Below are positions 3,174 to 21,799 of a DNA stretch of 64,000 bases, piece by piece (position 1 is the first letter of the stretch; each line of letters opens with the position of its first letter). A program made the position numbers and the translations under genes. This stretch comes from Escherichia phage vB-Eco-KMB43, in sequence record OR525698.1; one strand, written 5' to 3'. The notes under the pieces were generated by a model that had not been told where the DNA came from, did not search any database, and was given only the letters and a program-made list of their open reading frames with translations.

Positions 3174-3201
3174 ATTATAGAGAATCTCCCTTGTGTGTCA
3201 A
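3174..3201 (-). promoter_or_regulatory. early promoter with hairpin (TTGACA, 16 nt, TATAAT; -10 inside stem-loop 3163-3190)
   Basis: read on minus strand; stem GGGAGA/TCTCCC encloses the -10. Confidence 0.5.
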
Positions 3202-6394: not shown

Positions 6395-7786
6395 TCAAAT
6401 ATAGTCTACTCGATACCGCGCACGGGTAACACCCACATATAATAACTGCATTGCCAGTTCAAAGTCAACATTGTCTGTACACATGCAAGGAGTATACAGG
6501 AACACGCGGTCTACGCTGATCCCTTGTGACTTATGAATGGTGCAAGCTGGTAATGCTTTTACATTCAAGAACATACGCTTCATCGTCCAGAAGGAATCCC
6601 AATCTGGTTTAAATTTTGGATTCTCTTTCTTCATTTCGCGATATTGTCCGGCGACCGTATTCAGATAGATAGAGAAAATGTTCTTCTGACGTTGTTCTGT
6701 CAGAATGTTGATTTCTACTAAATCTGGTTTATCTGTAGTGATTCCGACTGCATCTAAACCGACTTTCTGATTTAGGATTTCTTTGTCTTCGTCATCATCG
6801 ACGCTTTCCACTTTCAGAGTATATCCTAAAACTGGTTGCGGATCTACACCCGTGCAACGTAATGTAAATTCACGCGGGATGACCTCTTTAACTCGGATCA
6901 TCTCACCATTGTTAAAAATAACATTGGGAATCTTCTTCCCGCGTTCATCTCGCAGATATTCGATCAATGGTTCCTGAGTAACCAGAATTTCATCTACAAT
7001 CACTGGTTCATCGGTGTTATAAACGCGCTTACGCACAATTTCATTGAGTTTTTCGACGCTCTTGTTAGTGTAGGCCAGAATACGGTTTTCTAGAAGGTCT
7101 TCCGGCGTTTTAACGGTTTCGAAATAATGCTTCATAAACTCCGGCAGAGTTGAGCTATGGAATACACCCTCGTTACCGCACTGCTTTTCGAATACCCATT
7201 TACCATTACGGACAGCGGTCGCCACATCAATTATTGGCGCATTAGATCGTTTAATCTCTGTAAGTTCTACATTCTGAAACCTTTCATCGGTGAAGAAAGG
7301 AGAGATCGACGTTGCACCGCCCGGATCAACTGGTCGTAACTGGTACAGATCACCCACGGCAATAATAACAATTCGACCGTTGATACTCTTCATGAGAATA
7401 TCAAATAGTTTCTTATCGACCATACTCGCTTCATCAACAATGATGATCTGAACATCATCTAGCTTAGGAGTATCTTTTTGCTCAAATACTTGAGTATCTT
7501 CATAGTTGGTCGGGTTTAGTCGCAGTAGTGCATGTAAAGTAAATGCTTGACGACCTACCGCTTTACTCAAAACTTTTTTAGCCTGGTGGGTAGGCGTTGC
7601 CAAAACCACACCAGTTACACCACGGCGGACCATTTCCTGAACAATGAATTTCATCATTGCGGTTTTACCAGTACCAGCCGCACCACGGACAGTTGTATGC
7701 TTCTTTTGTTCAATGCGTTTCATTAGAACATCAAAAGCATGTTTTTGCCCGTCTGTTAACATATCGAAAGTTAATACTCTGCTCAT
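6395..7786 (-). CDS. dda: Dda-like SF1 DNA helicase
   Basis: 463 aa; Walker A GAAGTGKT, Walker B IIIVDEASM; T4 order. Confidence 0.85.
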   Translation of the reverse strand: MSRVLTFDMLTDGQKHAFDVLMKRIEQKKHTTVRGAAGTGKTAMMKFIVQEMVRRGVTGVVLATPTHQAKKVLSKAVGRQAFTLHALLRLNPTNYEDTQVFEQKDTPKLDDVQIIIVDEASMVDKKLFDILMKSINGRIVIIAVGDLYQLRPVDPGGATSISPFFTDERFQNVELTEIKRSNAPIIDVATAVRNGKWVFEKQCGNEGVFHSSTLPEFMKHYFETVKTPEDLLENRILAYTNKSVEKLNEIVRKRVYNTDEPVIVDEILVTQEPLIEYLRDERGKKIPNVIFNNGEMIRVKEVIPREFTLRCTGVDPQPVLGYTLKVESVDDDEDKEILNQKVGLDAVGITTDKPDLVEINILTEQRQKNIFSIYLNTVAGQYREMKKENPKFKPDWDSFWTMKRMFLNVKALPACTIHKSQGISVDRVFLYTPCMCTDNVDFELAMQLLYVGVTRARYRVDYI

Positions 7787-8100
7787 TATCCTAAAATCCT
7801 CACCTTGCGAACACAGATAGTATTGAGTTCTCGCCGTACCCGTTCTTTCTCATATTCAGGAATTTTGTATTCTATACCATCCCGAACAATTTCAGAAGAC
7901 CGGATTATACCAAATTTTCGTTTAGGCACAACCTTGTATTTCGGTTCACCTGCCAATAGACTCTCACAATAATCTATCTGATCACACATTGACGCTAACG
8001 CAGCATCATGTGTTTCGCAAGTTAGGACGCGACCCTTCGCGTCCACTGAGTATTGAAAGAATCCGTCTTTATCACGATAACATACAGCAAATACATGCAT
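7786..8100 (-). CDS. hypothetical protein (104 aa)
   Basis: ORF overlapping dda start by 1 nt. Confidence 0.35.
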   Translation of the reverse strand: MHVFAVCYRDKDGFFQYSVDAKGRVLTCETHDAALASMCDQIDYCESLLAGEPKYKVVPKRKFGIIRSSEIVRDGIEYKIPEYEKERVRRELNTICVRKVRILG

Positions 8101-8855
8101 TATAAACCTACCTTCGCTTTCATCAATTCAATCCACGACGCATCAATCGGAAGCCCGTATTTCACGCGTTCTTTTTGTGCTGGCGTTAAGTTCTCATACT
8201 TAGAAAGAGATTCAATCAAAACGCTGGTATATTTTAGCACGATTTCGGTATTGTTTGCAATAGCCTTAAGTTTTTCTTCTTTCTTGTTGATTTCGCTAAG
8301 TGCTTGCTTGAGATCTGCAATTTTCTGATAACGTTCTTCCATACGGAAGAGAGTATTTTTAATCGCTCGCTCGGCTGCCTCTGCTTTCTCCTGTTCGTTG
8401 TGCTTTTTGTGGCGCTCGATTGCTAATTTCTTTTCTTCGATTGCCATTTCCTGATTTTTGATGCGATTCTCGTTAAGTTCGATCCACTCGATGTACTTCG
8501 CACGTAGGGCAATTTCATCATCAGAAAGTTTACCGTTAGTTCCCAGTTCCTGGATCTCTTTAAGAGATTCGATAGTGTGATTTCCACGGAAAGAATTGTA
8601 TTTCAGTTTAACCGGAATTACATTGCCATCAACATATCCCAGATTGCAATCAATGCGCTCTAAGGAGAGTCCGTCATCACCTTCACCGAAAGCCTCACCT
8701 GAATAGGCACAATGAGTCTGACGGTAAATGTTACGAACAGTGACTAAGCTCATAGAGAAGTCTTTGTTGCGACGTGAAGCACCAGCCATGATAGAGTTCA
8801 GCCGGAAAACAACCAGCGCCAATTCTTCGTTAGATTTAAAAGCAAACAGTTTCAT
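8100..8855 (-). CDS. hypothetical protein with C-terminal coiled coil (occupies T4 srd position)
   Basis: 251 aa; HNH-like N-terminal motif ERID..GYVDGNV; long charged helical C-terminus; own early promoter upstream. Confidence 0.4.
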   Translation of the reverse strand: MKLFAFKSNEELALVVFRLNSIMAGASRRNKDFSMSLVTVRNIYRQTHCAYSGEAFGEGDDGLSLERIDCNLGYVDGNVIPVKLKYNSFRGNHTIESLKEIQELGTNGKLSDDEIALRAKYIEWIELNENRIKNQEMAIEEKKLAIERHKKHNEQEKAEAAERAIKNTLFRMEERYQKIADLKQALSEINKKEEKLKAIANNTEIVLKYTSVLIESLSKYENLTPAQKERVKYGLPIDASWIELMKAKVGL

Positions 8856-8884
8856 AATTGATTCTCCTTAGTTGGTATGTGTGT

Positions 8885-8913
8885 ATTATTGTCTATCTGG
8901 TTTGTGCTGTCAA
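8885..8913 (-). promoter_or_regulatory. early sigma70-like promoter (TTGACA, 17 nt, AATAAT)
   Basis: upstream of ORF 8100-8855. Confidence 0.45.
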
Positions 8914-8916
8914 CAC

Positions 8917-9420
8917 TTAAATTAAAGAAAATTTGTAAATCTCTATCAGATCGCCATTACACGCGTAAACTTCCTCGATCTCATCAAGGATCATGGTCGT
9001 CCCTGTCTTGTATATGCACTCGCGCTCATCTGCCAACATAGCATACAAAGACAGTCGAGTAGTCGGATTGTCATACTCTTTAGATACCACTCGGTCAATA
9101 GCATGTTCGTAATAATTCATGCAAGGCTTGGTAGGTTTTATTGCAATAATCTTTCCTGTTGCATAAACATCGGTTGCAAAGTCCTCTGCTGTTGATTGCA
9201 GTGGCGTAAAGCTCATAGGACGCTCTACAACGAAAGAATCACCTACAATTAAGGTATCCAGCTTACGACCTTCTCTTTTGCTCACACCGCGATACAAGGC
9301 TTCATGATGCACTAACCGTTCAGTCTTTTCGATCAATCCATTAAGGATCGACATATCGATATTTTCTTTAGAGTTCATCAATTCATCAATGATGTTAAGT
9401 TCTTCTGGTGTAAATTGCAT
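8917..9420 (-). CDS. hypothetical protein, possible ModA/ModB-like ADP-ribosyltransferase
   Basis: 167 aa; LYRG and SFTP motifs reminiscent of the ART R-S-E pattern; T4 modA/modB position; weak. Confidence 0.3.
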   Translation of the reverse strand: MQFTPEELNIIDELMNSKENIDMSILNGLIEKTERLVHHEALYRGVSKREGRKLDTLIVGDSFVVERPMSFTPLQSTAEDFATDVYATGKIIAIKPTKPCMNYYEHAIDRVVSKEYDNPTTRLSLYAMLADERECIYKTGTTMILDEIEEVYACNGDLIEIYKFSLI

Positions 9421-9453
9421 AATAAAAAAGCCTCCAATCTTTCGACGGGAGGC
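9421..9453 (-). terminator. rho-independent terminator (hairpin GCCTCC...GGAGGC plus U-run)
   Basis: minus-strand hairpin followed by TTTTTTATT just before ATG 9420. Confidence 0.45.
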
Positions 9454-9482
9454 ATAATAAAACCATTATAGAGTAGTGTCAA
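9454..9482 (-). promoter_or_regulatory. early promoter (TTGACA, 17 nt, TATTAT) overlapping a terminator hairpin
   Basis: between gene 56 stop and ORF 8917-9420. Confidence 0.45.
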
Positions 9483-9489
9483 CTAATTT

Positions 9490-10008
9490 TTAGTAGCCGC
9501 GTTCTTGACGGGCGAAGTTTTCAGCATTTTTCAGATAGTATAGAATAAAGAGTTCTTGAGCGTCAATACCCAGCGGGATCATCTTTGACAGAATGAAGTG
9601 GATCGCGTCCACAAATTCAAATTTCACTTCAAGCTGATCTTCTGGTGACAGTTCAGAGAATTTACGCGCTCGCGCTTCCCCGTGGTTCTTTTTCCACATT
9701 TTCCAGATTGCACTTGCATCTTTACCATTTGACATGCCACCCAGCGATGTGTAAAGCTCTCGTGTTTCGTCTGCGATAGCGTCATCCATCCGTTGCATCC
9801 AATCCAACATTTCACCGCAAGTCTCTAGCTTAGTTGGATTTGGGACCCAATCAAATTTTTCGGATAATGCAACCTGCAAACCAGTTTGCATTTCGAGCAT
9901 CACCTGAAACGGATCTTTACCTTCTGCAATAGCGTGATGATATGCGGCGATAGCCGCGTTAATATCTTTTTCGTTAACCAGACCAGCACAAGAATTAAAT
10001 TCTGACAT
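9490..10008 (-). CDS. 56: dCTP pyrophosphatase, MazG-like
   Basis: N-terminus MSEFNSCAGL aligns with T4 gp56; EFVDAIHF MazG motif; ATG at 10008. Confidence 0.75.
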   Translation of the reverse strand: MSEFNSCAGLVNEKDINAAIAAYHHAIAEGKDPFQVMLEMQTGLQVALSEKFDWVPNPTKLETCGEMLDWMQRMDDAIADETRELYTSLGGMSNGKDASAIWKMWKKNHGEARARKFSELSPEDQLEVKFEFVDAIHFILSKMIPLGIDAQELFILYYLKNAENFARQERGY

Positions 10009-10022
10009 ATTCACCTCATTAA

Positions 10023-11051
10023 TTAAAATTTACAATATTTCATAAACCGCATTTTAGCCATCAGACCTTGTACGGTGTTCTCTTTGATATATTCCATGAT
10101 CTGGTCGCGTGTAGCGCCCTCGTCCTGAATCATGGCGTTAACGTCTTTAGAATGCCACGGGCAACGGTCCCACAATACAATCTTTTCCCCTGCATTGATA
10201 AACTTTTCCAGTCGGTGCATTGTATCGGCAGACCGTGGTTCCGCATCAAGTACAAACACTCGCTGGTCTGGGAAAGGGATTTCATCTAATCCCAAAGTAC
10301 CGCCAGTAATTGCACACCCGTTATCAATAAACAATGAATCGATCGGACCTTCTAAGAAATACACTGGCCTACTCGGATCGGCGCGTTCAAGACCATAGAC
10401 CTTACTCGCTAACTCATGAGTTTTAATCGTCATATATTTGGTCTTTCCGTAATCCTTTCTCAATGCTCGCCCCTGAATGGATTCTATCTTGTTCTCGCGG
10501 TTAAAGATAGGAATCACTAAACGCGGTTCAGGTTGTGGATTCTTGAAAGTATCAGCCTTAATGTGATTTGCTACCTTTTGCCATTCTCTCGTGAAATACA
10601 GAAGGTCCCATTTATCGTGAGGGATGCAACGATCACTGACATACTTTATTATAGGATGATTAGCCGGAAGAGTATCTAATCTCTCGCAGAAAGGCAATGT
10701 TTGCACTTTCTTAATCTCCGGCTTTTCTACCTTTTTCAGTGGCTTGAACGTGGTGTTCTTGTGGTCTCCTTGTTCCTTCCGTCGTTCCATAAGCCATTCC
10801 CTGAATAGGTCCGGCTTATACTGTTTGAGAAATTCACCTAACGGCTGATTGTAGTTACAGTTGAAACAACCACAACGCAAACTATCCTTATAGGTATAGA
10901 TACGGAATCGCGCCATTGTGCTATTCTTTTTGGAATCTCCGCAGATCGGACAACTTGCTACTAACGTAAATGAGTTAGTATGTAACCGCTTGAAATTTCG
11001 TTCGCCGTATAATGCTTTTTCGGCTATTTCATAATCTGCGTAGTAAATCAT
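10023..11051 (-). CDS. 61: DNA primase
   Basis: 342 aa; N-terminal zinc ribbon CPICG...CFNC; same length as T4 gp61. Confidence 0.85.
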   Translation of the reverse strand: MIYYADYEIAEKALYGERNFKRLHTNSFTLVASCPICGDSKKNSTMARFRIYTYKDSLRCGCFNCNYNQPLGEFLKQYKPDLFREWLMERRKEQGDHKNTTFKPLKKVEKPEIKKVQTLPFCERLDTLPANHPIIKYVSDRCIPHDKWDLLYFTREWQKVANHIKADTFKNPQPEPRLVIPIFNRENKIESIQGRALRKDYGKTKYMTIKTHELASKVYGLERADPSRPVYFLEGPIDSLFIDNGCAITGGTLGLDEIPFPDQRVFVLDAEPRSADTMHRLEKFINAGEKIVLWDRCPWHSKDVNAMIQDEGATRDQIMEYIKENTVQGLMAKMRFMKYCKF

Positions 11052-11058
11052 AAGATCC

Positions 11059-11622
11059 TCACTGTATATTTTTACTTCTCTGCTTTCCTATCCAGATCCG
11101 TCTAACTGTTTCCGCATTAACATCATATATTTTTGCGGTCTTTGCCGCAGATCCGGTTCCTTTTAGAGTTTTGATTTCTTCAATCTGATCTTTGGTTAAT
11201 TTAGCCCAATGGTGTGCATCACCATAACACGAACTCAGACCGTGTGTCAATGCATGAATCTGATTTTCTGATTGTGTAACCCATTCAAGATTATATAGGT
11301 CATGGTTTCTTTTGTTTCCATCGATATGATTAACAAACGGCAAATTGTTTACGTTTGGTATAAACGCTTCTGCTTTTGCTCTGTGTATGTATATCGATAG
11401 AGATTTAACCCTAGACCCTGAACTAGTTTTATTACCGTAAGGATCTCTGATTCTTGCTACGGCGTATCCACCGCTTCTTCCGGCTACAGATTCTCTATAA
11501 ATCTTTCCTGTTTTCTTGTTTCTAATGCGTCCATATGAGCTAACCTCGTAGCCTGGCATTTCGACGCCCATATAAACAAGGTCTTTCCATTCTTCTGGAT
11601 GTTCATCACAATACCGTTTCAT
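11059..11622 (-). CDS. HNH homing endonuclease (NUMOD4-like plus HNH)
   Basis: GYEVSSYGRIRN motif and VNHIDGNKRNHDLYNLEWVTQSEN HNH motif; inserted just downstream of primase gene. Confidence 0.75.
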   Translation of the reverse strand: MKRYCDEHPEEWKDLVYMGVEMPGYEVSSYGRIRNKKTGKIYRESVAGRSGGYAVARIRDPYGNKTSSGSRVKSLSIYIHRAKAEAFIPNVNNLPFVNHIDGNKRNHDLYNLEWVTQSENQIHALTHGLSSCYGDAHHWAKLTKDQIEEIKTLKGTGSAAKTAKIYDVNAETVRRIWIGKQRSKNIQ

Positions 11623-16369: not shown

Positions 16370-19048
16370 TTAAATGTCAAACAGGTCCGTAAGCGATGCC
16401 ACCTTTTCATATTGCAGCTTTGCAGCCGTGGTAATGTTCTCCAGTGGTTTGACGAAAGTCTTATTAAACAACAAAGGCCAGTCTAACCACTTTAACACCT
16501 CTGATTCAATTTCTGGAGGAATACGAGTACCGGACAACCAACCAAAACAGATTTCTCCAAACGGATTTCGGTCTTTAAGCGGTACAATCATAACCTTCTC
16601 GCCCTCACGAATTGGATCTAGTCCGAATTTTCGAGCATTACGATTATAACACAATACACTCTTAACCGCATACGGACAACCCTTAATCGGATACCCGTTT
16701 GAATCGCTGTATTTCTGTAGGTTGTTTGCGGATGATACCGCAGCAACCTCAAGATAGTCAAGTTTTCTAAATTCTTGCTCAAAAATACCGTAGTATTCCT
16801 GCAATGACTCTTCACCTTCCTGCAACATACGGCGAATACATTCTTTCAGTGATTTCTGACATGCTTTAGGGGTGGAGCTACGTTGCGTTTCCAAGCCCAT
16901 GATTTTTAGCTTAGGTTCAGCAAAGCGCGTTCCTTCCATATCCCAAACATTAAGAGCATAACGCTTTTTACCAGTCCAGAATCCACCGATACCCGCAGAT
17001 TTCAATGGAGGACCAGCAATTGCCTCACGGTCCATAAACATCAAGTGCTCATAGTTGTTCATGTACTCGCATAACTCGCGATATCCCTTGTCGATAATAG
17101 GTTCCATTCGATGTTTACCGAAATTATCAAGGAAGTCAACAAGTTTTTCGGTATCGTCGAAACGGTCTTCCCCGCCAACCTTATCAATAACATTGTTAAC
17201 CAGCACATAAACGGAGTCAGTATCACAATAACGAACATATGCAAAATCAGTTGTTCCGCAAAGTTCGTTTAAGTATTCGTTAATCTTACGCTCAATCCAC
17301 TGAATTGCAAGCTGACCAAACAAGGTGATCGCACTAGCGTTACGGAGATCATAAAAACGGAATTTAGGATTCCCCAACGCACCATAAAGGGAGTTGATCA
17401 AAACTTTTCGAGAAAGCTGGTTTGTATTGCACAAGATCGACTCGTCTTTACATTCTTCCAGCAATTTCTCTAAGGCATCTTTGCTCAATTCAGAAAGCAT
17501 CGATTTAAACGCTTCATCGAAGTCGTGACGCACTTCAACGCTATAGCTAATGGTTCCCCCATAAACATGATTTTCATCGTGTAGAATCGCTTTACAGAGT
17601 TCAGCATTGCGATCACATGCCAACATCATGTTTTTGTACTGCTTACGCTGATCGAATACCTTTTTAATCTCAATCGGTACGATACCGTGAATATCTTTTC
17701 TATACATCCATCCGTTAGGCGAGCAAGAATACTCATCACTCGGACGTGGTGCAGTTTTATTGATATACTCGTGCATCGGTGCAGCATCAAAAGATCCAGC
17801 GATTGTTTCAGGAGAAATATTAACCTGTCGAATAATAGATGGGTACAGACTTGTTAAGTCAAAGCTCATCATCCAACGGTAAGCATTCGGCACAGGTTCT
17901 TTTACGAATGCTCCTGGATACGTCTGCTTAGGCTGTATCTTGTTCTCTGGTACTACTTTACCCTCAGCTTTCAGAGATCCGAAGATAATAGCATCCCATA
18001 CTTTCATCGGGTTATAAACATGGTTAAATTTAATCTTTGCATAGAAACATAGACTATACACCAGATCAATAAAACCACGCTTTTTATCAATCGCCAGCAC
18101 ACGGTCAACGTCGCCGATGTTATAATCTATGTAAAGTTGATGGTTGTCATCACGCAATTTCTTTAACGGACCATCATAATCAACCTTACCGATTCCTGTC
18201 TCGTATTCAGCAACATAATCTAATGCATATGTTGGTTGAGTAGTAAAGCTAAATTTCTTGTACAGGTCAATATAATCAAGGCTTTCGATCCCCATGATCG
18301 TAAATGCTTCACGCTCGTTGCCAAAATCATCCTGCGAGATTCGGGATTTAATCTTACCGCACGGGCTTAGACGGTTAGCGGTTCTACTTCCGAACTTATT
18401 ACTGATACGTTTAATGATATATGGAATATCGAATGTTTCTGTGTTCCAGCCAGTGAAACCAACGGGTCGGTTTTCCTCAAAGAATCGGATGTATTCTAAC
18501 AGCAATTCATCTTCTGTGTCATAGACGTTATAAACAACGCGCTCTACAATATCAGGGCGAAGAATAGACTTGCTTGCTTCCCAGATTTCACCGTTTTTTC
18601 CTTTCAAATCAAATACAAAGAAACGATCATGTACGGAATCATAATGCGTAATAGCATCGATAGGATATTTCGCTTCTTCTGGTTTAGGAAATTCCGGTGC
18701 AGTGACCTCAATATCAACCCAGGCTACACGGATTTTATTTCGGTCATATCGAATCTCGCCTTTATATGTATCGGACAGATAGGAGATGATAAAATCATCC
18801 ATCCCTAGTGCCTCCTGCCCCATTTCTCCCATCTTTTTACGCCATTTGTTGGCCTCGTTCATAGATGGGAATTTTTTAGCAATGCAAGGCTTGCCATAGA
18901 TATCTTTATAATTCGTAACCATACCGGGCGCGGCATGATGAAATAAAGTTGGCGTATATTCAACGTAACGCTCTTGTTCTTGTCCAGCATCATCAATATA
19001 ACGCTCGTAGATCTTATCACCCACTCGCTCACATGACAGAAAATACAT
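16370..19048 (-). CDS. 43: DNA polymerase, family B
   Basis: YCDTDS motif C, exonuclease motifs; N-terminus aligns with T4 gp43 from internal ATG at 19048 (GAAGGAG RBS); track start 19078 is GTG. Confidence 0.9.
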   Translation of the reverse strand: MYFLSCERVGDKIYERYIDDAGQEQERYVEYTPTLFHHAAPGMVTNYKDIYGKPCIAKKFPSMNEANKWRKKMGEMGQEALGMDDFIISYLSDTYKGEIRYDRNKIRVAWVDIEVTAPEFPKPEEAKYPIDAITHYDSVHDRFFVFDLKGKNGEIWEASKSILRPDIVERVVYNVYDTEDELLLEYIRFFEENRPVGFTGWNTETFDIPYIIKRISNKFGSRTANRLSPCGKIKSRISQDDFGNEREAFTIMGIESLDYIDLYKKFSFTTQPTYALDYVAEYETGIGKVDYDGPLKKLRDDNHQLYIDYNIGDVDRVLAIDKKRGFIDLVYSLCFYAKIKFNHVYNPMKVWDAIIFGSLKAEGKVVPENKIQPKQTYPGAFVKEPVPNAYRWMMSFDLTSLYPSIIRQVNISPETIAGSFDAAPMHEYINKTAPRPSDEYSCSPNGWMYRKDIHGIVPIEIKKVFDQRKQYKNMMLACDRNAELCKAILHDENHVYGGTISYSVEVRHDFDEAFKSMLSELSKDALEKLLEECKDESILCNTNQLSRKVLINSLYGALGNPKFRFYDLRNASAITLFGQLAIQWIERKINEYLNELCGTTDFAYVRYCDTDSVYVLVNNVIDKVGGEDRFDDTEKLVDFLDNFGKHRMEPIIDKGYRELCEYMNNYEHLMFMDREAIAGPPLKSAGIGGFWTGKKRYALNVWDMEGTRFAEPKLKIMGLETQRSSTPKACQKSLKECIRRMLQEGEESLQEYYGIFEQEFRKLDYLEVAAVSSANNLQKYSDSNGYPIKGCPYAVKSVLCYNRNARKFGLDPIREGEKVMIVPLKDRNPFGEICFGWLSGTRIPPEIESEVLKWLDWPLLFNKTFVKPLENITTAAKLQYEKVASLTDLFDI

Positions 19049-21112: not shown

Positions 21113-21799
21113 TTAGTCGGTGTAGCTGGAGTCAAGGTCACACGCGATCATATAAGATACGGTTTCACTTGCCAGCCATACAGCCTTACGGCGAGTGAAG
21201 CTCAGTTTGTAATCTCCGAAGTCCGTAGCAACCAGTTTCATGTTATCTTTACGAATAAAGAAATGGAAGTCGGCGGTTCCGGTATATTCGCCCATATCAA
21301 GACAAAACATCTCATTAGGATTGTTTTTGTCAATCTCTTCCCAACCTTTGATCATCAGACGACCATCAATCGGAAGAAATTCAAGGCGGTCCACTTTAAG
21401 CTGATTGCTCATTTTCATAAGCTGTTTCAGATCGTCGTTGCTCAGTTCGTAATCTACATCGCTTGCAGGTGGAGTAACTCGGCCTTTCGGTGATACGATA
21501 GCGGCAGCACTAGCACCAGGATAATTAATTTTCAGACGATCATTAGACACACGAATGTTACCAGTGCGGTTATCAACCGTAATATCTGCTTCATCGCCTA
21601 CCAGATTCAGAATACCCAGGAAAGAGTTAAGATCATAGATCCCGATTTCGTGTTCCAGTTCTTGATTCAGAGTCGCTTCACCATATACAACGTTTGTCAT
21701 GTTTTTGGTGATTAGGACGTTTCCTTTTTTCAGGATGATACCTGGGTTAATAGCGGAAAAGTTTTTCAGGGTAGCAATGGTTTCTTTAGTCAGTTTCAT
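21113..21799 (-). CDS. 45: sliding clamp
   Basis: N-terminus MKLTKETIATLKNFSAIN matches T4 gp45; ATG at 21799. Confidence 0.85.
   Translation of the reverse strand: MKLTKETIATLKNFSAINPGIILKKGNVLITKNMTNVVYGEATLNQELEHEIGIYDLNSFLGILNLVGDEADITVDNRTGNIRVSNDRLKINYPGASAAAIVSPKGRVTPPASDVDYELSNDDLKQLMKMSNQLKVDRLEFLPIDGRLMIKGWEEIDKNNPNEMFCLDMGEYTGTADFHFFIRKDNMKLVATDFGDYKLSFTRRKAVWLASETVSYMIACDLDSSYTD

Follow-up and report, generated by a model that had tools for sequence, protein, structure and literature searches.

The gap between gene 56 and the adjoining Mod-type ADP-ribosyltransferase gene of Escherichia phage vB-Eco-KMB43 is most probably filled by a PeSL (promoter-early stem-loop) cassette, in which a stem-loop lies just downstream of the -10 box of a promoter. 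Such a cassette would separate a replication-gene unit from a host-takeover unit and place mod on its own early promoter. The window, that is, the whole stretch of DNA that was analysed, is 64,000 nucleotides long (sequence record OR525698.1), and all coordinates given here are positions in it. The cassette lies on the minus strand, and its -35 box begins at 9482.

By its sequence, the source phage is a Krischvirus, an RB49-like T4-type coliphage. A 1.2-kb query around the locus returned 59 phage records, all of them Krischvirus (RB49, phi1, JSE, GEC-3S and others), most with 95-99% identity. RB49 positions 8850-10050 align with window positions 8850-10050, so that RB49 numbering and window numbering are the same in this region.

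The genes on both sides of the gap are encoded on the minus strand. Upstream lie gene 61, coding for primase (10023-11051), and the direct neighbour, gene 56 (9490-10014), coding for a dCTPase / NTP pyrophosphohydrolase (PHROG 173, E = 5e-37; Pfam dUTPase_2). Gene 56 is annotated as gp56 in RB49, GEC-3S and others and ends with the stop codon TAA at 9492-9490. Downstream lies the Mod-type ADP-ribosyltransferase gene (8917-9420, with its ATG at 9420), which is annotated modB in RB49-like phages. Its product of 167 amino acids matches PHROG 832, “RNA polymerase ADP-ribosylase” (E = 1.6e-20), and is about 29% identical to the Mod proteins of other T4-like genera. It is followed by srd (8100-8855), which has a separate strong promoter at 8913, a Y01A-like open reading frame (7786-8100) and dda (6395-7786). 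The cassette thus has the core replication genes 61 and 56 as neighbours, and not ORFans or the classic hyperplastic region.

Direct reading of the minus strand allows every base of the 69-nt gap between 56 and modB to be assigned to a signal. The first is the AT-rich stretch AAATTAG (9483-9489), which resembles an UP element and corresponds to the “AT-rich region” of PeSLs. Together with the stop codon of gene 56 it forms TAAAAATTAG, directly 5' of TTGACA. This is shorter than the family consensus, which in an alignment of the PeSLs of the window is AAAAAGTTG plus an A/T run before TTGACA. Next come the -35 hexamer TTGACA (9477-9482), invariant in 15 related loci, and a 17-nt spacer (9460-9476) that varies among relatives (AACTCAATCAATGGTTT in JSE, TTCCCCTATAATGGTTT in the metagenomic locus L012). 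The -10 hexamer TATTAT (9454-9459) is annotated as a minus_10_signal in GEC-3S and is kept in 14 of the 15 loci, the remaining one (L011) having TATTGT. In a consensus scan, TTGACA-17-TATTAT matches at 11 of 12 positions. The original prediction had read this order of hexamers, followed by a hairpin and a U-run, between gene 56 and the reading frame at 8917-9420 on the minus strand, and the sequence, the consensus match and the fold all confirm it.

Promoters of this type are far from randomly placed. The exact pattern TTGACA-N17-TATNAT occurs eight times in the window, where shuffled sequences would lead one to expect 0.09 occurrences, and every copy is on the minus (coding) strand. Relaxing the definition gives 74 promoter-like sites, 68 of them on that strand. 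These figures bear on a very unlikely explanation, in which the promoter match is inactive or irrelevant, the region only ends the 61/56 unit, and mod is expressed by read-through. The score of this promoter (Pe:9496) under the RB49 early-promoter HMM is indeed modest, at 11.3 compared with about 29 for its neighbours, and the GC-rich discriminator GCCTCCC is unfavourable and may weaken the promoter. The next gene, srd, moreover has a strong promoter of its own. However, the exact pattern is about 90-fold enriched and confined to the coding strand, and the hexamers are conserved while the spacer varies. In phages JSE and G37-3 the upstream gene is reversed, yet the cassette is intact from the -35 box onward. 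Finally, on read-through RNA the Shine-Dalgarno sequence would be masked, which would leave mod almost silent without its own promoter.

The spacer also holds a perfect TATAAT (9470-9465), 6 nt from the -35 box. It is embedded in CTCTATAATGG, a sequence common to the -10 region of the PeSL at 3201, and is probably the remnant -10 box of another PeSL. Remnant -10 elements have been ascribed to recombinational slippage (Comeau et al. 2014, PMC4122927). As a real -10 box this orphan was rejected, since it has neither a -35 box nor a TG extension and is absent from JSE.

If transcription began 5' of the hairpin, for instance near 9458 under the control of the orphan TATAAT, the element would be a self-attenuating leader, whose own transcripts would contain the complete terminator and need anti-termination or some factor. 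Of all the explanations considered, this is the most improbable. The TATAAT is present in most relatives, and the cassette at 21135 does have its hairpin at +1 to +20, inside its own transcript. Nevertheless, the TATAAT lacks a usable -35 box: the best candidate, CTAAAA, matches at 3 of 6 positions, and TTGACA is only 6 nt away. In JSE it is gone, although everything else is kept. An Rfam search also found no leader or riboswitch family; its best match, L10_leader (E = 0.77), reached 18.6 bits, well short of the gathering score of 44.

The terminator hairpin (9430-9453) is 24 nt long, and its first base directly follows the -10 box. It has the form GCCUCC / C·U mismatch / GUC-GAAA-GAU / GGAGGC. 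The outer stem pairs G9453-C9448 with G9435-C9430 and consists of 6 bp, five of them G-C. A mismatch, C9447·U9436, forms a 1x1 internal loop. The inner stem pairs G9446-C9444 with G9439-U9437 in 3 bp and is closed by a GAAA loop (9443-9440). There are thus nine pairs in total, six of them G-C. The predicted fold has an energy of -15.0 kcal/mol (z = -4.35); one of 200 shuffles was equally stable, and the hairpin ranks within the top 0.3% of all 36-nt windows on the minus strand. A scan that allows internal loops finds it as one of nine strict hairpin-plus-T-run sites on that strand. A packaged terminator scan does not report it, since with the 1x1 internal loop included the “loop” is longer than that tool permits.

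The hairpin is followed directly by the U-tract UUUUUUAUU (9421-9429), composed of U6 (9429-9424) and AUU (9423-9421). The combination of a GC-rich hairpin and an immediately adjoining U-rich tract is that of an intrinsic terminator. The U-run had been described as ending 1 nt before the ATG. This needs correction, as the U-rich tract directly abuts the ATG at 9420, with 3 nt between the pure U6 and the ATG.

The 3' arm of the hairpin contains GGAGG (9431-9435), the Shine-Dalgarno sequence of the Mod-type gene, which is annotated as a ribosome-binding site in Ec_Makalu_002. This feature was not part of the original prediction. It lies 10 nt from the AUG, where a typical PeSL of the window has about 7 nt. 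The U-tract accounts for the stretched spacing, which suggests that the tract has been selected or kept for termination.

The transcription start is predicted at G9446, or alternatively at C9447, directly 3' of the outer 5' arm. Three lines of sequence evidence converge on these positions. First, they lie at the usual sigma-70 distance of 7-8 nt past the -10 box, where a purine is preferred. Second, the CCC at 9449-9447 fits the early-promoter consensus of RB49, which has C at -3 to -1; according to Nolan et al. (2006, PMC1524935), this consensus agrees with the mapping of 5' ends by Desplats et al. Third, the match to the RB49 promoter model, Pe:9496, has its 3' end at 9446. Typical cassettes of the window read -10/ACNCCC/ATCGAAAC and the cassette at 9482 reads -10/GCCTCCC/GTCGAAAG; in typical PeSLs, an (A/G)TCGAAA motif directly follows the CCC. 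A search of the literature on Krischvirus found no mapped 5' or 3' transcript ends for the 56-modB element, and no Term-seq or 3'-RACE data for the genus. The start had earlier been placed inside the 5' arm of the stem. This agrees with the present analysis, in which it falls where the 6-bp outer arm meets the 3-bp inner stem, inside the composite arm.

The position of the start has consequences for folding. RNA that enters from upstream is predicted to contain the full hairpin of -15 kcal/mol, followed by the U-tract. With a start at any position between 9449 and 9443, the 6-bp outer GC stem is lost and the RNA folds with only about -4 to -7 kcal/mol. Because the predicted start is past the outer 5' arm, RNA made from the cassette's own promoter should be unable to form the terminator, while transcripts from gene 61/56 can. 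The claim that only transcripts from upstream would form the full terminator is thus upheld by the predicted energies. A similar difference is predicted for the Shine-Dalgarno sequence. GGAGG has a probability of 0.00 of being unpaired when the RNA is initiated upstream, but of about 0.1-0.7 when it starts at 9447 or 9446, and opening the region 9437-9408 would cost 14.1 kcal/mol in the long RNA but 4.5-6.3 kcal/mol in the short one. Since the Shine-Dalgarno sequence is the 3' arm of the hairpin, read-through RNA would, according to these models, be masked for translation as well. We infer that the choice of start site decides whether an RNA carries both the terminator and the mask over its ribosome-binding site.

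The proposed mechanism begins with host RNA polymerase arriving from the gene 61/56 unit. It would transcribe the whole hairpin and the U-tract and be released at about 9424-9421, before the AUG. Any polymerase that reads through would make an RNA in which the GGAGG is locked in the 3' arm. Initiation at the cassette's own promoter, at about G9446, would instead yield pppGUCGAAAGAUUGGAGGCUUUUUUAUUAUG..., which does not have the GCCUCC arm. Such an RNA would not cause termination and would have a free ribosome-binding site. As a result, the replication-gene unit would be kept apart from the host-takeover unit (mod, srd, the Y01A-like gene and dda), and expression of the Mod enzyme would depend on its own early promoter. 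At the level of DNA, the conserved cassette could in addition serve as a patch of homology for the exchange of gene modules. The insulation of the downstream gene, which had been proposed earlier, is likewise favoured by the predicted geometry of the start, the folding and the published logic of PeSLs (Arbiol 2010, Comeau 2014).

Some points weigh against the PeSL mechanism. They are the reversed polarity of the stem, the low HMM score, the GC-rich discriminator, the setting among core genes and stems without compensatory changes.

Another explanation is that the hairpin acts mainly as a translational mask, as in T4 e, soc, 49 and I-TevI, and that termination is secondary or inefficient. This is unlikely, even though several observations speak for it. 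The GGAGG forms the 3' arm itself, and the values for pairing and opening given above separate the long RNA from the short ones. T4 provides precedents: there, an RNA that starts at an internal promoter does not include the 5' strand of the inhibitory helix (PMC3014915). The reported high toxicity of ModA-type enzymes to E. coli would provide a reason for tight control. On the other hand, a U6AUU directly after the stem is a signature of termination and is unnecessary for masking. The spacing of 10 nt between the Shine-Dalgarno sequence and the AUG, instead of about 7 nt, suggests selection for the U-tract, and TransTerm gives the terminator a confidence of 100. Masking and termination do not exclude each other, and masking is best seen as a second layer of the PeSL mechanism more than as a rival to it.

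If both layers operate, the cassette may be a kind of double lock. In this tentative extension of the PeSL mechanism, which is possible but has less than an even chance of being correct, one 24-nt hairpin would be both a terminator and a mask over the Shine-Dalgarno sequence. The potentially toxic Mod enzyme would then be made only from RNA of its own promoter, and the GGAG exposed on this RNA would be open to RegB, leading to a short early pulse of expression. High toxicity to E. coli has been reported for ModA-type enzymes, and Mod proteins are made early, which together give a plausible reason for such tight control. RB49 encodes the RegB nuclease (PMC3014915). That the exposed GGAG on the promoter-proximal RNA is a candidate RegB site is speculation.

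The relatives of the element were compared at 15 loci, taken from GenBank phage records, IMG/VR and metagenome contigs. Across these loci neither the hexamers nor the two stems change, apart from the one altered -10 box mentioned above. The parts that drift are the spacer (in three variants), the mismatch base, the A-run and the T-run, which is 5, 6 or 7 long and never shorter. The only substitution inside the hairpin is a change of U9436 to C in L012. It affects the unpaired mismatch base and is compatible with the structure. As the stems are invariant in the 15 loci, no compensatory changes occur in them, and the hairpin structure therefore rests on thermodynamics and not on covariation. Conserved hexamers and stems amid drifting sequence fit the behaviour expected of functional signals.

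Relatives of intermediate divergence are scarce. A tblastn search with the Mod protein against 50,697 phage records gave matches of at least 95% identity (58 records) or below 31%, with none between. IMG/VR contributed one relative at 74%, and a single metagenome scan yielded only copies at 99%.

Two of these comparisons show junctions at the cassette. In JSE and G37-3, an HNH endonuclease gene on the opposite strand lies between gene 56 and modB. Homology to the window resumes exactly at TTGACA, and the AT-rich stretch 5' of the -35 box has been replaced. The cassette has stayed with modB and is the only co-directional promoter adjoining the gene. Since the upstream neighbour is on the opposite strand, there is no co-directional neighbouring gene to supply transcripts. 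The second case is the metagenomic locus L012. Over the bodies of its gene 56 and mod, identity to the window is 45-80%, compared with 94-96% for the stretch 9535-9375. Identity returns to 94-100% from the next PeSL (8913), from 8924 onward. By this pattern of identity, the modB allele of L012 is one that was swapped between two PeSLs. The junctions in JSE, G37-3 and L012 fit a role of the cassette as a recombination linker; in both cases the association is correlative.

These junctions also speak for another explanation, that the element has a role in DNA only, as a linker for the exchange of modules, and that its regulatory activity is incidental. In L012, the alleles of gene 56 and mod have diverged while the cassette between them is still 94-96% identical, the insertion in JSE and G37-3 has its junction at the -35 box, and a published model describes PeSL-mediated shuffling and mini-circles. 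This explanation is nevertheless highly improbable. Every base of the 69-nt gap is a signal for transcription or translation in the correct register. Drift affects the spacer, the bulge base and the length of the T-run but spares the hexamers and stems, which is the pattern expected of functional signals. The insertion in JSE, furthermore, is a homing endonuclease with its own mechanism of insertion.

PeSLs were defined in RB49 and phi1, where 51-52 of them were counted and five positional subclasses distinguished, including one “downstream of the -10” (Arbiol et al. 2010, PMC2839356). They were proposed to insulate genes from upstream transcription, described as “transcriptional isolation”, and to serve as recombination linkers (Arbiol et al. 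2010, PMC2839356). Only PeSL193/192, PeSL206/205 and PeSL211/210 have lacZ data on their activity as promoters and terminators (PMC2839356). The text of Arbiol et al. (2010, PMC2839356) does not mention modB or 56. Comeau et al. (2014, PMC4122927) called the elements “composite promoter-terminator motifs” and extended them to T4/PST and KVP40/nt-1.

The window contains more than 25 intergenic cassettes that combine a promoter with a stem-loop. They share a common layout: an A/T-rich stretch, TTGACA, 16-17 nt, a -10 box, a C-rich discriminator, a Shine-Dalgarno sequence and ATG, with CCC-(A/G)TCGAAA after the -10 box. The element had been presented as a singular design, and in this respect the earlier view has to be abandoned, because it belongs to a repeated and published family. 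In most cassettes of the window the stem is of the form GGGG...CCCC and the -10 box is the loop. A few have a terminator upstream of the -35 box (for example 61261-61242 and 59284-59267), and in one (3190-3163) the terminator is wrapped around the -10 box. The cassettes at 16380 and 5118 have a hairpin downstream of the -10 box, without a U-run. Only the element at 9482 has a full hairpin-plus-U-tract terminator in that position.

The traits by which PeSLs are recognised can be followed through this element. It has a near-consensus sigma-70 promoter and an AT-rich region that contains the upstream stop codon. A stable stem-loop occupies one of the five positions, in this case downstream of the -10 box and just before the start. 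The element is intergenic, takes up all 69 nt of the gap, ends in a Shine-Dalgarno sequence and ATG, and belongs to a family that recurs in the genome. It is associated with junctions of insertion or replacement between related phages, although this association is correlative. A G(n)-loop-C(n) stem is absent, as the stem is GCCUCC...GGAGGC with the C-run on its 5' side. Such a stem is “frequently” present in PeSLs, which describes a tendency and not a requirement (PMC2839356, PMC4122927).

The element at 9482 is already known: it is a PeSL promoter-terminator, and both of its halves were predicted at these coordinates in 2006. It carries little weight as a discovery, since composite promoter-terminator cassettes have been known from the same phage lineage since 2010. 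What the present analysis adds is the predicted masking of a Shine-Dalgarno sequence that serves as a 3' arm, and the recombination junctions at the cassette in JSE, G37-3 and one metagenomic relative. The only point that is modestly new is that the 3' arm of the terminator doubles as a ribosome-binding site. This detail may be of use in the design of compact insulators, and possibly of interest for the way in which T4-like phages limit the expression of toxic ADP-ribosyltransferases. The element is also a textbook-like case of signal compaction, with an UP-like stretch, a -35 box, a -10 box, a terminator, a Shine-Dalgarno sequence and a start codon arranged in 69 nt with no spare bases.

The closest known systems are the PeSLs of RB49 and phi1, from the same phage group. 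Their AT-rich stretch, near-consensus sigma-70 promoter, adjacent stable stem-loop (a proposed terminator of transcription from upstream), Shine-Dalgarno sequence and ATG are all present at 9482. There are, however, several differences. The stem of the element at 9482 is C-rich on its 5' side and G-rich on its 3' side, reusing the C-rich discriminator, and is not a G(n)-loop-C(n) stem. It is followed by a full U-tract, which most PeSLs of the window do not have. The published PeSLs have their Shine-Dalgarno sequence at the 3' extremity, beyond the stem-loop, whereas here it is the 3' arm; no terminator with such a 3' arm was found in the accessible parts of the published PeSL descriptions. The element also lies beside the core genes 61 and 56 and not among ORFans.

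The same element was predicted, at the same coordinates, in the genome of RB49. Nolan et al. (2006, PMC1524935, Additional files 3 and 6) listed a promoter, Pe:9496 (9446-9496, minus strand), and a TransTerm terminator, “modB<--56” (9430-9453, confidence 100). The two features stand in separate tables, and the accessible text does not discuss their 8-nt overlap or its consequence. Among GenBank records, the promoter is annotated in GEC-3S, the terminator in Ec_Makalu_001 and Ec_Makalu_002, and the ribosome-binding site in Ec_Makalu_002.

The hairpins of T4 e, soc, 49 and I-TevI offer a second comparison. In these genes a hairpin masks the ribosome-binding site, and translation takes place on transcripts from an internal promoter, which lack its 5' strand (McPheeters et al. 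1986, reviewed in PMC3014915). At 9482, the Shine-Dalgarno sequence is likewise predicted to be paired in upstream-initiated RNA, and own-promoter transcripts are predicted to lack the 5' strand. In T4, however, the internal promoter is a late one (gp55, TATAAATA), and the hairpin takes part in an early-to-late switch. The promoter at 9482 is a sigma-70 early promoter, the late motif TATAAATA is absent from the 56-modB gap, and no temporal switch is implied. Moreover, the T4 hairpins have no U-tract and are not terminators, unlike the hairpin of the element at 9482. By analogy, the element would thus work partly like this class of ribosome-binding-site masks without being a member of it.

With the canonical intrinsic (Rho-independent) terminators of E. 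coli the element shares a GC-rich hairpin, here of -14 to -15 kcal/mol, and directly after it a U-tract, here with 8 U in 9 nt. It differs in its position, as it occupies -7 to +17 of a promoter with 0 nt left before a start codon, and in having a ribosome-binding site as its 3' arm. A last comparison, made by Arbiol et al. (2010, PMC2839356), is with the lambdoid “morons”, which are likewise gene cassettes with autonomous transcription. In a moron the gene lies between its promoter and its terminator, and these are not thought to mediate mobility, whereas at 9482 the terminator that ends the upstream unit is fused with the promoter that begins the next.

Fusion of a promoter with a terminator is not confined to one layout in this phage. 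Clean terminators, each a hairpin followed by a U-run, also lie on the minus strand at 61261-61242, 59284-59267, 63761-63745, 27031-27008 and 3190-3163. Because the first two of these sit immediately upstream of the following cassette's -35, while the one at 3190-3163 encloses a -10 box, the predicted elements show that such fusion has been achieved in several geometries within the window.

Two further minus-strand cassettes, at 16380-16316 (-22.9 kcal/mol) and 5118-5059 (-20.7 kcal/mol), carry a strong hairpin directly after the -10. Given this position, their own RNAs would start within the 5' arm. Both are without a U-tract, and the Shine-Dalgarno sequence is part of neither hairpin. Another arrangement is found at 21135-21060 (-), where TTGACT-17-TATAAT is followed by the hairpin GGGGAGTG-UAAA-UACUCCCC and then GUUUUAAUG. 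Here the hairpin spans approximately +1 to +20 and so, unlike those of the other cassettes, would lie inside the transcript of its own promoter. It could possibly serve as a leader attenuator or as a 5' stabiliser.

The promoter after the 9482-9421 cassette, TTGACA-17-AATAAT at 8885-8913 (-), lies ahead of srd. It has no stem-loop, the best local hairpin reaching only -1.9 kcal/mol, and therefore RNAs begun at 9446 should continue through srd, the Y01A-like ORF and dda. The Srd ORF (8100-8855, minus strand) matches PHROG 1400, the Srd anti-sigma factor, with E = 3e-74. Residues ~20-170 are matched as well by PHROGs of HNH endonucleases and of endonuclease VII (E = 1e-10 to 1e-12), a hint that Srd descends from a nuclease fold.

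Within the spacer of the 9482-9421 promoter, 6 nt from the -35, is a perfect TATAAT without a partner (9465-9470, minus strand). The 11-mer CTCTATAATGG at this orphan hexamer recurs in the cassette at 3201, within its -10 region, and the orphan itself is missing in JSE. It is probably a -10 left over from past recombination between PeSL (promoter-early stem-loop) cassettes. Among the 15 related loci, the sole hexamer change is a natural -10 variant, TATTGT, at the equivalent of position 9455 in IMGVR_UViG_3300045988_033703, which keeps A-11 and T-7.

Homing endonuclease genes are found in the neighbourhood of the cassette. A free-standing ORF of 187 aa with HNH_3 and NUMOD4 domain matches (11059-11622, minus strand) is flanked by the gene 61 primase and a small upstream ORF. 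Judged by this comparison it is a strain-specific mobile insertion, since no such ORF occurs at the equivalent position in the four relatives compared, GEC-3S, Ec_Makalu_002, JSE and G37-3. A second, different HNH endonuclease gene (~306-309 aa) is present on the opposite strand in the loci of JSE (1524-2444) and G37-3 (1515-2444). It is located between gene 56 and modB, at a site equivalent to ~9483-9540 of the window, and its 3' end overlaps that of gene 56 by ~77 nt. Past this insertion, homology of both phages to the window restarts exactly at the -35 TTGACA.

IMGVR_UViG_3300005711_000037 resembles window 10223-7720 in a mosaic fashion. Across the bodies of gene 56 and modB, nucleotide identity is 45-80% (amino-acid identity of the modB protein, 74%), versus 94-100% for the cassette region (9535-9375) and for everything from 8924 onward, a stretch that comprises the srd cassette, srd itself and the Y01A-like ORF. 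This pattern looks like an allele swap with a PeSL at each boundary.
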